This document shows positions 25,309-33,112 of a DNA stretch of 43,299 nucleotides, in pieces (the stretch's first letter is position 1; the number at the start of each line of letters is the position of its first letter). The position numbers and the translations under genes were made by a program. A model generated the notes under the pieces. That model was not told the origin of the DNA, searched no databases, and worked only from the letters and a program-made list of their open reading frames with translations. Origin of the DNA: a virus (taxonomy: Duplodnaviria; Heunggongvirae; Uroviricota; Caudoviricetes); the IMG/VR virus record IMGVR_UViG_2703718838_000011. One strand, given 5' to 3'.

Positions 25309-25412
25309 GTAAAAAAGGGATTAAAAGCTCATAAAAACGGCTTTTTTGGATTATTCATCATCTTTTTTGATGCACGTAACAATCCAAATATAAAAACAAA
25401 GTTTCGACAAAA

Positions 25413-25432
25413 AACCCGCTCGATGGCGGGTT
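25413..25432 (-). terminator. hairpin terminator immediately downstream of Q
   Basis: Stem AACCCGC/GCGGGTT with 6-nt loop, flanked by A-run on plus and U-run on minus transcript. Confidence 0.4.
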
Positions 25433-25497
25433 CTTAATTCTTTGTCGACCTACGAAGCTATGGCGACGATATCAGATTTACATGAAATATATGCGTT

Positions 25498-27878: not shown

Positions 27879-28130
27879 TTAATATTTGTAGCGGTTTTCA
27901 GGAAGAAATGCGTATTCGTAAGTGAAGTTGAACGCCTCACTTTCAGTGTTAAATCGGCGCTCGGTGATATCACTCCAGTGTCCCCTGAAATACTTCTGAG
28001 CCCCCCACTTTCCCTCGAATGGGAATACAGCATACGCACCGACATACCGGTTATCAGCATGCGGATCTGGATATGACTCGCGTTCTGCCAGAACGTAAAA
28101 CTTGATGCCGCTTACAATGAGGCAGCCCAT
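27879..28130 (-). CDS. hypothetical aromatic-rich protein (P3)
   Basis: 83-aa ORF, ATG 28130 overlapping the stop of the upstream gene (ATGA). Confidence 0.4.
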   Translation of the reverse strand: MGCLIVSGIKFYVLAERESYPDPHADNRYVGAYAVFPFEGKWGAQKYFRGHWSDITERRFNTESEAFNFTYEYAFLPENRYKY

Positions 28131-28387
28131 CACTTCTTCTCGTTCTGCGCGGCCATATCCAGGTATCGCGGGTCGGATGATTTCGGTAGAGTCAGGCTTT
28201 GCTCTCGGTAGTAACGAACTCGCTCCATGAAGTATTCACGCAGATGATCTGGCTGCTCACGAGCTACCTGCTCAGCGATAACCGGCATGTTCAGGCGCTC
28301 TTTGTACGCTACGCCACTGGCAGCCAGGTCCACGTTAGCCTTGTCCTGCTCTTCTTTCGATTTTGCTGCGATATTAAAATGTGACAT
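28130..28387 (-). CDS. hypothetical charged protein (P2)
   Basis: 85-aa ORF, ATG 28387; translationally coupled to P3. Confidence 0.4.
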
Positions 28388-29228: not shown

Positions 29229-29320
29229 GGAGGGTTGGCCGAGTGGTTGATGGCACCTCACTGATAATGAGGCGTACGGGCTATAAACCCGTACCGCGGG
29301 TTCGAACCCCGCACCCTATT
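29229..29320 (+). tRNA. tRNA-like gene with class II (long variable arm) fold; anticodon loop CUGAUAA gives anticodon GAU if folded canonically; acceptor stem imperfect
   Basis: Hand fold: acceptor GGAGGGT/ACCCTAT (one mismatch, one G-U), D-arm GCC-GAGTGGTTGAT-GGC, anticodon stem CCTCA/TGAGG, variable arm with 7-bp stem GTACGGG/CCCGTAC, T-arm GCGGG-TTCGAAC-CCCGC; no encoded CCA. Confidence 0.45.
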
Positions 29321-29408: not shown

Positions 29409-29540
29409 TCAATCACCTGCCATTGCGTAGCCGAGATTACCGCCGTCGCTTTGTGCTGCTGCTTTTATGAGTATTTCCTGTATCTCGTGCAGACGATCGA
29501 GTGATACAGGACCGTTCACCGGGTGGTTGTTAATTGTCAT
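29409..29540 (-). CDS. possible small ORF (43 aa)
   Basis: ATG 29540 with SD AAGGA 5 nt upstream; MTINNHPVNGPVSLDRLHEIQEILIKAAAQSDGGNLGYAMAGD; below track cutoff. Confidence 0.3.
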   Translation of the reverse strand: MTINNHPVNGPVSLDRLHEIQEILIKAAAQSDGGNLGYAMAGD

Positions 29541-29542
29541 GG

Positions 29543-30020
29543 TTAGTCCTTCACAAAGATAATCCAATGGGTTTTGTCGTTCTTCCCAGTACGCTGACCA
29601 ATTGCAGGTTTCACGTCAGTAAGAGCTAAAATCTGGCTAACCGGGATCTGCGTTTCGTTCCATTTGAAAATAAGCACGCCGCGCGGCCACAGCACCCGAA
29701 ACGCTTCTTTGAAACCGGCGCGTAAGTCAGAGCGCCACGTTTTTTTTGTTCAGTCGCCCGTATTTTTTACCCATCCAGGCAGACTGGCCCACGCGCTCGA
29801 GGTGCGGCGGGTCAAACACCACAACCGGAAAAGAAGAATCAGCGAACGGCAGTGAACGAAAGTCTGAAATCAGGTCTGGACTGATAACCAGGCGGCGACC
29901 GTCGCACAGTTCGTGCTCTTCGGCGCGAATATCAGTGAACACGGCGCGGGTGTCCTGCTTGTTGAACCAGAACATGCGGGAGCCGCAGCACATATCAAGA
30001 ATCGTCGTGTTGTCGGTCAT
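29543..30020 (-). pseudogene. small DNA methyltransferase-like gene split by a frameshift in a homopolymer (A8 on coding strand, T8 at 29740-29747)
   Basis: N-part from ATG 30020 has MTase-like motifs (ILDMCCGS, VVVFDPPH) and stops at 29727; the +1 frame continues through ...FKEAFRVLWPRGVLIFKWNE... to TAA at 29543. Confidence 0.5.
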
Positions 30021-30328
30021 ACTGATGCTCTCCCGTAAAACGCCAGTACACGCTGCATAGCCGGACTTGTGCGGCATACGGATGTGACCATGTTTTTTCT
30101 CACTTTCGATTTGAGTTGCTTGATATTCTGCTCGCCACCGGGCTGAAGCGAATAGACCGGGCGATGCGGCTCGCCAGTGCGGATTACTACCGTTTTGCGT
30201 ACTAGGTGAAGCAGCAGGTTGTGTGCCTTCTTGCAGTCGCATCCCAGCAGGCTCTGAACCTGACGAGGGGTTATGGTCTGGTTAACCCGAAGGAAATCGA
30301 CGATTGCCCACAGTGATTTGCTTGCCAT
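30017..30328 (-). CDS. hypothetical protein, possible winged-helix DNA-binding protein
   Basis: 103-aa ORF, ATG 30328; stop overlaps methyltransferase start (ATGA). Confidence 0.4.
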   Translation of the reverse strand: MASKSLWAIVDFLRVNQTITPRQVQSLLGCDCKKAHNLLLHLVRKTVVIRTGEPHRPVYSLQPGGEQNIKQLKSKVRKNMVTSVCRTSPAMQRVLAFYGRASV

Positions 30329-32046: not shown

Positions 32047-32213
32047 TAAGTCCTCCTGAAGAATAATTAAGGGAAGATTTATCCAGTCGCGGTCCGACAC
32101 GCTGGCAAAACAATTTGTGGTTAGGCATACTTACCCCGCAATGATTTCGCAATGAATTGCACCAGAAAGCCGTTGGTGTTCGCGCACCGCGGCTTTCGCC
32201 ATTTTTGAACCGG

Positions 32214-32753
32214 TCATATAGCCCCCAGCATCATCTGCACCATCTCCATCAGTGGACCGGTTAACCCAGGGTCAACGCGATACATCTCCACGATCCCCTC
32301 GCTCAACTCTTTCAGCTTTTGATGGCGTGGCGCATCCATTGCGACGGCAATCTTCGCTTCGCTGGTTTCTTTCTCCAGCCGAGCCAGGCGGGCCATAACG
32401 TTGTCTTCTGGTAGCAGACGGTTGCGGTATTCAATCGGCAGGACCGCCAGGATTGCCGGAGTCAGCTGGCGAACGTTCTCACGGTACCGTTCGCTGTTGA
32501 AATGGTTATCCAGGAAGCGGAAAAGCTTCTGCCGCTTTCGGCAGAGATCGTCAGGGAAAGTGATGTCATAACCACCCTGCGCCCGGTACTCTTCGACGAT
32601 CAGAGCAGAAACGACATCCTGACCATCTACACCCGCCCATGAACGAACGGCATTTCGAATATCTTCGTGACACGGCCCCTTATAGGTTTGAGCGCGATTT
32701 ATCACCGCTTGTTGCGGTACTCCTGTATCCTGGTAAAACGTAAGTAATTGCAT
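32214..32753 (-). CDS. YdaT-like protein (CII-position regulator/toxin YdaT family)
   Basis: 179-aa ORF directly downstream of cro-like gene, ATG 32753 with SD AAGGGA; same arrangement as Rac ydaS-ydaT. Confidence 0.5.
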   Translation of the reverse strand: MQLLTFYQDTGVPQQAVINRAQTYKGPCHEDIRNAVRSWAGVDGQDVVSALIVEEYRAQGGYDITFPDDLCRKRQKLFRFLDNHFNSERYRENVRQLTPAILAVLPIEYRNRLLPEDNVMARLARLEKETSEAKIAVAMDAPRHQKLKELSEGIVEMYRVDPGLTGPLMEMVQMMLGAI

Positions 32754-32784
32754 AGTGCTTTCCCTTGATGGTTAGCGCCGCCGG

Positions 32785-33015
32785 TCAGGCGGCTGAATGT
32801 GGATGCGGAAACAATTCAGGAAGGTCGGGACGGAATTCATGAGCTTGAATCTGTCCTTCGCTTGCCTTTACCAAAACAGGAACATGGATCGGGGAGATTT
32901 GTTTTTTCCCATTTAACCAGTCACAGACCGTGGATTGGGCCTTACCACATCGCTTCGCTAGCTCTTTCTGACTACCGGCGATTGCAATCGCTTTTTCTAC
33001 AGCAGGGTTTTTCAT
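32785..33015 (-). CDS. Cro-like HTH repressor (YdaS-like)
   Basis: ATG 33015 with SD AGGAG; 76 aa; divergent from cI across the operator region. Confidence 0.7.
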   Translation of the reverse strand: MKNPAVEKAIAIAGSQKELAKRCGKAQSTVCDWLNGKKQISPIHVPVLVKASEGQIQAHEFRPDLPELFPHPHSAA

Positions 33016-33042
33016 AATCGCTCCTTCTATCAATTTAGGTTG

Positions 33043-33071
33043 ATTATGTTTATCGCTTTAACGAATGTCAA
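33043..33071 (-). promoter_or_regulatory. candidate PR (cro promoter)
   Basis: Minus-strand TTGACA (33071-33066), 17-nt spacer, CATAAT (33048-33043); overlapped by operator sites. Confidence 0.5.
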
Positions 33072-33112
33072 TCGCCTATGCGATTTTTTGCTTATTAATC
33101 GCTGTGGCGATA
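33051..33112. promoter_or_regulatory. OR operator cluster: AATCGC-N4-GCGATT palindromes
   Basis: AATCGCCTATGCGATT at 33070-33085 (perfect arms), AATCGCTGTGGCGATA at 33097-33112, degenerate TATCGCTTTAACGAAT at 33051-33066. Confidence 0.55.

Follow-up and report, generated by a model that had tools for sequence, protein, structure and literature searches.

Is the small methyltransferase gene that breaks at an 8-nt homopolymer in this prophage misread, switched, rescued, split in two or simply dead? The window, i.e., the whole 43,299-nt stretch of DNA that was analysed, carries the gene on its minus strand. The original prediction described it as one methyltransferase-like gene interrupted at the run, and offered slipped-strand phase variation, a decaying gene and a homopolymer sequencing error as possible reasons. 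The features needed to follow the argument are these:

29727..30020, minus strand: N-terminal frame of the methyltransferase (MTase) pseudogene, 97 aa, from translation
30002-29979, minus strand: motif I, ILDMCCGS, in the 97-aa frame
29813-29802, minus strand: motif IV, DPPH, in the 97-aa frame
29740..29747, minus strand: A8 homopolymer (T8 on the plus strand), site of the +1 insertion
29543..29739, minus strand: rest of the coding sequence in the +1 frame (residues 94-158 of the intact enzyme) and the TAA stop
30017..30328, minus strand: 103-aa gene that precedes the MTase in the same early operon, with a stop that overlaps the MTase start (ATGA)
29409..29540, minus strand: downstream 43-aa gene, its ATG 3 nt after the MTase TAA

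Translation confirmed the predicted frame, with both ILDMCCGS and VVVFDPPH, from the ATG at 30020-30018 to the frame-0 stop TGA at 29729-29727. The 97-aa product (MTDNTTILDMCCGS...VVVFDPPH...RLNKKNVAL) reads MTDNTTILDMCCGS...FPVVVFDPPHLERVGQSAWMGKKYGRLNKKNVAL and then TGA, ending in a four-residue out-of-frame tail, NVAL. The continuation was also where it had been placed, in the +1 frame with the 8-nt run as the junction, and reads ...KKTWRSDLRAGFKEAFRVLWPRGVLIFKWNE...HWIIFVKD to the TAA at 29545-29543. In the in-frame A7 state, the tract is AAA AAA ACG and encodes Lys92-Lys93-Thr94; a version with the tract interrupted would read AAGAAAAA. The prediction that gain or loss of one base would restore the ORF was half right: by direct translation, a clean 158-aa ORF results when one A is lost (A7), but gain of one A (A9) leaves the MTase out of frame, and two extra bases (A10) are required to give an ORF of 159 aa.

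The A8/T8 run is the sole homopolymer of at least 8 nt in the window. Dinucleotide shuffles of the window contained a mean of 3.1 A8/T8 runs, and at least one in 91 of 100 shuffles, so the run is not above chance and was ruled out as a statistically unusual feature in itself. What is beyond chance is that the frame breaks exactly on an A run at which orthologues are in frame with A7. A second run, A6 at 29763-29768 on the minus strand (Lys85-Lys86; GGT AAA AAA TAC), lies 16 nt upstream of A8. It is often interrupted in relatives (28 of 86 have AAG at codon 86), and among these relatives it was never the site of a frameshift.

One explanation is a sequencing or assembly error at the homopolymer, with A7 as the true sequence, and it is at homopolymers that 454, Ion Torrent and nanopore reads typically go wrong. 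The A8 allele is real, however, and reproducible across assemblies. Four complete E. coli genomes match an 801-nt stretch that includes A8 at 100% identity; two of them may be one strain, given their equal length and near-identical strain names. At least seven other assemblies, drawn from different projects, were fetched and checked and also have A8, and an exact look-up found the truncated 97-aa product on 148 contigs (233 index blocks), from E. coli where a host is named. Sibling prophages from comparable assembly pipelines give A7. An error is thus extremely improbable, and with an identical allele in so many assemblies this part of the original prediction was refuted. At the identical locus, RefSeq annotates a 'class I SAM-dependent methyltransferase, frameshifted' pseudogene, so public annotation already flags the lesion, and it looks like an ordinary slippage product.

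The repaired 158-aa protein is WP_159137328.1, 'MULTISPECIES [Citrobacter]', found by exact look-up on 14 contigs (26 blocks). In an alignment of orthologues, Salmonella phage ST-35 and Klebsiella phage ST13-OXA48phi12.4 are intact and carry AAY AAA AAA ACR (A7); A7 is the in-frame length, compared with A8 in the window and A6 in Salmonella phage vB_SosS_Oslo. Because intact orthologues carry A7, the window allele is a +1 insertion. More distant orthologues in the alignment encode K-E/D-T, and their run is interrupted (AAAGAAAC, AAAGACAC).

Two phage records show related damage. In vB_SosS_Oslo (JQ806764.1; L002, about 2774-2779), the A6 tract causes a frameshift at the same spot in the opposite direction, and the record annotates a truncated 126-aa 'putative DNA methyltransferase' that terminates out of frame. 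In Klebsiella phage ST16-OXA48phi5.1 (L005, 301-783), an in-frame stop splits the MTase into two annotated CDS.

Such annotations raise the question of whether the two frames could be separate functional genes or a two-piece enzyme. Some annotators call a 50-aa ORF from GTG 29695, and the PHROGs database has separate N- and C-terminal fragment families: the repaired protein matches PHROG 954 'DNA methyltransferase' (1e-84) and also PHROGs 11564 and 6151, which are apparent collections of N-terminal (residues 2-94) and C-terminal fragments. The single-chain form of about 155-170 aa is the norm in thousands of clusters, however, and the fragment PHROGs are most simply explained as collections of broken genes. 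Furthermore, in our structural model the two parts together make up a single Rossmann domain, one half each, and the 50-aa ORF lacks helix residues 94-108. A split arrangement is therefore scarcely credible. The orthologues, single ORFs with A7 in frame, bear out the original view that this is one gene split at the run and not two unrelated genes.

Database searches place the protein only broadly. Pfam and NCBIfam gave only generic or sub-threshold class I MTase matches, and sequence searches of the PDB matched no solved structure, with generic or sub-threshold MTase matches only. An AF2 model reached a pLDDT of 88.6 when Firmicute homologues were added to the alignment (the shallow Enterobacterial alignment alone gave 55). 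It has the Rossmann-like seven-stranded fold and motif I of a class I SAM-dependent MTase, and the catalytic domain is the entire 158-aa model. Motif I (residues 7-14) follows beta1 and aligns to motif I of PH0226; in 87 sequences, its D9, C11 and C12 never vary, and conservation of G13 and S14 is 90% or more. Motif IV follows beta4, and its residues D70, P71, P72 and H73 show no variation among the Enterobacterial and Firmicute homologues.

Motif IV has the form (D/N/S)PP(Y/F/W/H) of nucleic-acid amino-methyltransferases (N6A/N4C/N2G type), and the enzyme is in this respect like the (D/N)PP(Y/F/H) amino-methyltransferases M.TaqI, Trm11, TrmN, RsmC and N6AMT1/KMT9. A fold search did not separate DNA from RNA substrates; annotation and genomic context point to DNA as the putative substrate. 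The model contains no target-recognition domain or DNA-binding module, no Pfam DNA-MTase family reaches threshold, and PF01555 is a precomputed match in 1 of about 240 homologues listed.

With A8, translation would leave the frame after Lys93 and stop four codons later. In the model, this break falls just before helix 95-109. The 97-aa product keeps beta1-beta4, including the SAM-binding motif and DPPH, and is without helix 95-109 and strands 110-121, 140-143 and 150-156. Lacking that helix and the last three strands, it has very likely lost its enzymatic activity, judging from the model. Beyond the frameshift, the C-terminal part shows no additional damage, and its out-of-frame sequence still encodes exactly the residues of the intact Citrobacter protein, which fits a recent event; occasional use of the ON state would fit too.

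The break may also reach beyond the MTase. The 43-aa gene is present in all sibling loci, and the order around the 103-aa gene is the same in L095-L109. In the A8 allele, about 185 nt separate the premature stop from the start of the 43-aa gene, and any translational coupling from the MTase to this gene may thereby be lost.

Sibling prophages at loci L095-L102 have A7 and an intact MTase, and come from Citrobacter where a host is named. They share 98-99.9% DNA identity with the window over 3-5.8 kb and the same gene order: YdaT-like, DnaT-like, DnaC-like, 103-aa gene, MTase, 43-aa gene, theta, DUF1367, NinG and Q. The nearest comparison is L102, which over 3.1 kb differs by one mismatch plus the tract. 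A8 was present in nine of nine near-identical A8 sequences compared (the window, L001 and L103-L109).

Together, the 17 near-identical sequences have only 7 variable positions in 2851 aligned columns around the tract. A central haplotype is found both with A7 (L096, L102) and with A8 (L105, L106), and the other A8 and A7 haplotypes radiate from it star-like by single changes, so one A7-to-A8 change suffices. Tract states separate by host among the 17 loci: A8 is E. coli-named, and A7 is Citrobacter where named. Interleaved A7 and A8 among very close relatives was not seen in these 17 loci, and the four complete E. coli genomes are all A8. The A8 allele also occurs in mosaic prophage variants with different flanks. 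This haplotype pattern suggests a single origin for A8.

We consider it highly probable that the locus is a real, inherited pseudogene, in which the frame of a small prophage class I SAM-dependent MTase was broken by one A7-to-A8 slippage event. Its ORF is broken relative to intact orthologues, and the same lesion recurs in independent assemblies. Among the options first raised for the gene, decay through slippage inactivation is the best fit. A single replication-slippage event would have added one A to A7 (AAA AAA ACG, Lys-Lys-Thr) in a prophage haplotype whose intact form survives in Citrobacter, and A8 would since have been inherited or spread in E. coli. A general incompatibility of the MTase with E. 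coli was also considered; that idea is weakened by intact MTase homologues, at about 83% identity, which are common in that species.

The same run has broken in relatives. Pattern scans for Lys-Lys-Thr-type alleles, with A6-A10 allowed, gave 86 related alleles, of which 80 (93%) have A7, four A8 and two A6. By source, these are:

Viral contigs: A7 62, A8 3, A6 2
Genome contigs: A7 3, A8 0, A6 0
Metagenome contigs: A7 15, A8 1, A6 0

A distance analysis gave six independent tract frameshifts including that of the window, each with an A7 allele as its nearest relative; some of those known from a single assembly (e.g., the A6 of Oslo) could be sequencing errors. Four are +1 events (the window, L014, L026 and L053, with L088 the same allele) and two are -1 events (Oslo and L073). 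Elsewhere in the gene there were about three disruptions, namely a nonsense mutation in L017, a frameshift in L058/L090 and the nonsense mutation in ST16-OXA48phi5.1. The tract is 1.5% of the gene yet accounts for six of the nine disruption events, far beyond chance. Indel rates in E. coli climb exponentially with homopolymer length (PMC8510543), and the share of events at the tract fits this dependence. Breakage at the A7 tract is recurrent, and the run is an ordinary mutational hot spot. On several independent occasions, and in both directions, related phages have lost the frame at this run.

An A7 run follows from a Lys-Lys-Thr peptide and a preference for AAA. The other Lys codons of the gene are about 31% AAG, and 69% are AAA overall; at 69%, Lys-Lys-Thr gives A7 about half the time by codon choice. 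At the two tract codons, AAG occurs in 0 of 53 distinct in-frame alleles, and a scan with AAR AAR allowed recovered the same 62 in-frame alleles with no AAG in the tract. Lys codons 104, 119, 137 and 85 are likewise AAG in 0-2 of 53 alleles. The lack of AAG hints that the tract is conserved, but with four other Lys codons nearly as uniform, we do not claim selection keeping the tract.

Recurrent breakage could also be read as slipped-strand phase variation, in which the A tract would switch the MTase ON (A7) and OFF (A6/A8) and so vary phage or host DNA methylation. The repeat does lie inside the ORF and its length does set the frame, relatives have +1 and -1 states from six independent events at one tract, AAG never interrupts it, and the OFF allele is free of secondary decay. 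However, the tract is only 7-8 nt, the lengths seen were 6, 7 and 8 even though A10 was allowed, and 93% of alleles are A7. A8 (E. coli-named, on 148 contigs) and A7 (Citrobacter where named) separate cleanly, as a single event would leave them, and every complete E. coli genome with the allele (four of four) is A8. The uniformity of four other Lys codons (at most 2 of 53 AAG) means that the 'conservation' of the tract is not significant, and the tract is absent from more distant orthologues. Moreover, in mismatch-repair-proficient E. coli, A7-A8 runs change at a rate far below the switching rate of classical contingency loci. Phase variation is unlikely on this evidence; with a short tract, a uniform A8 and one event sufficing, the original suggestion of it is not supported, and functional switching appears to be absent.

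It is distinctly unlikely that the tract serves as a low-rate contingency switch in one branch of the family, with the A8 OFF state selected when the prophage moved from Citrobacter to E. coli and rare reversion re-arming methylation. We are just as doubtful of the reason that would go with it, i.e., that OFF was selected because, for example, the modification is costly or restricted in E. coli. If true, this reading would make the locus a phage-borne MTase ON/OFF switch in Enterobacteria.

Another way to keep the gene functional would be recoding, where full-length enzyme is made from A8 by RNA polymerase dropping one A or by a +1 ribosome shift on AAA AAA A. A/T runs are known slippage sites and rescued disrupted genes exist (PMC1088944, PMC4256274), and tRNA-Lys could re-pair in the +1 frame here. 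However, relatives do not share the out-of-frame layout (80 of 86 have the gene in frame), AAC, which follows the run, is neither a slow codon nor a stop and gives no stimulus for a +1 shift, and A8 is below the typical bacterial slippery length of at least 9 A/T. In bacteria, selection against slippage generally shows at run lengths of 9 nt (PMC1088944). In GFP reporters, no deletion-type rescue by E. coli RNA polymerase was detected on the poly(A) runs examined, and there was no slippage activity at all below 8 A (PMC6260861). The A8 allele needs a one-base deletion in the mRNA, which those reporters did not detect, so transcriptional rescue was set aside. Taken over both routes, recoding is very unlikely.

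The favoured frameshift pseudogene has close parallels. Prophage accessory-gene pseudogenes that arise at mononucleotide runs, the class to which RefSeq gives the label 'frameshifted', likewise have a one-base insertion, an intact orthologue one base shorter and a truncated product, and many isolates inherit the same lesion. Nothing essential differs here; the extra element is that the same A7 run has been broken repeatedly and in both directions.

The phasevarion Mod proteins of Haemophilus, Neisseria and Moraxella are similar in that a simple repeat lies in an MTase ORF and its length decides between ON and OFF. Phasevarion loci have long variable tracts (tetranucleotide repeats or long homopolymers), high-frequency switching and within-strain heterogeneity. 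Here, by contrast, the tract is A7 plus or minus one, with OFF uniform in the E. coli lineage and ON uniform in Citrobacter, and unlike a Type III Mod protein, the product is a 158-aa orphan enzyme without a target-recognition domain.

Slippage-rescued genes (Shigella mxiE, Thermus dnaX and IS elements; PMC1088944) also have an A/T run that joins two frames, as does Citrobacter rodentium tssM, where an A/T run sits at the junction (PMC4256274). The cases cited from PMC1088944 have runs of 9 (8 in some IS elements), and the out-of-frame layout is conserved among homologous IS elements. The present run, unlike these, is A8, and most of its relatives are in frame.

For annotation, we recommend treating the MTase in this prophage as a pseudogene that should not be 'corrected' as an assembly error. 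No methylation motif is expected from this gene in E. coli strains with A8. The recurrent breaks at the A7 run also account for the separate N- and C-fragment 'families' in phage databases (PHROGs 11564 and 6151) and for truncated or split MTases in phage records such as Oslo and ST16-OXA48phi5.1.

The MTase family itself is a more interesting object than the frameshift. Homologues fall into thousands of 90% clusters, mostly single ORFs of 155-170 aa, and an N-terminal extension brings some members to 248 aa. The phages that carry homologues include those of Salmonella, Klebsiella, Acinetobacter, Vibrio, Gordonia, Streptococcus, Listeria and Porphyromonas, and homologues are also present in Halorubrum and Haloarcula viruses (haloarchaeal tailed viruses). 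This DPPH family thus extends over temperate phages of Proteobacteria, Firmicutes, Actinobacteria and Bacteroidota, plus haloarchaeal viruses, and the E. coli prophage protein shares 64% identity with its Gordonia phage counterpart. The gene usually lies in the early/replication region, and in other phages it is often beside MT-A70, Dcm-type or adenine MTases. Literature searches on the family or its accession numbers found no paper.

Some features elsewhere in the prophage are worth recording. RefSeq annotation of the identical locus, transferred to the window, gives a homologue of the DNA polymerase III theta subunit downstream of the MTase at about 28130-28387 (minus strand), and at about 32200-33100 a YdaS/YdaT-like pair that adjoins a LexA-family repressor. 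The replication genes are of DnaT-like and DnaC/IstB-like type rather than lambda O/P.

A 92-nt tRNA gene at 29229-29320 (plus strand), on the strand opposite to the early operon, is tRNA-Ile(GAT) according to ARAGORN, RefSeq and Rfam (46.4 bits). In the Rfam alignment its long variable arm, about 20 nt, is self-complementary, and the D-arm (GGCCGAGUGGUUGAUGGC) presumably resembles that of class II tRNA-Ser/Leu. A class II body is thus combined with an Ile anticodon. A G1:U72 pair is followed by a G2:A71 mismatch, and the gene does not encode CCA. The tRNA may be degenerate or mis-decoding.

Finally, Rfam places two Salmonella-named Hfq-binding sRNA families in the window at gathering level: STnc490 at 6176-6299 (minus strand, 146 bits) and isrJ at 25410-25482 (minus strand, 58.7 bits).
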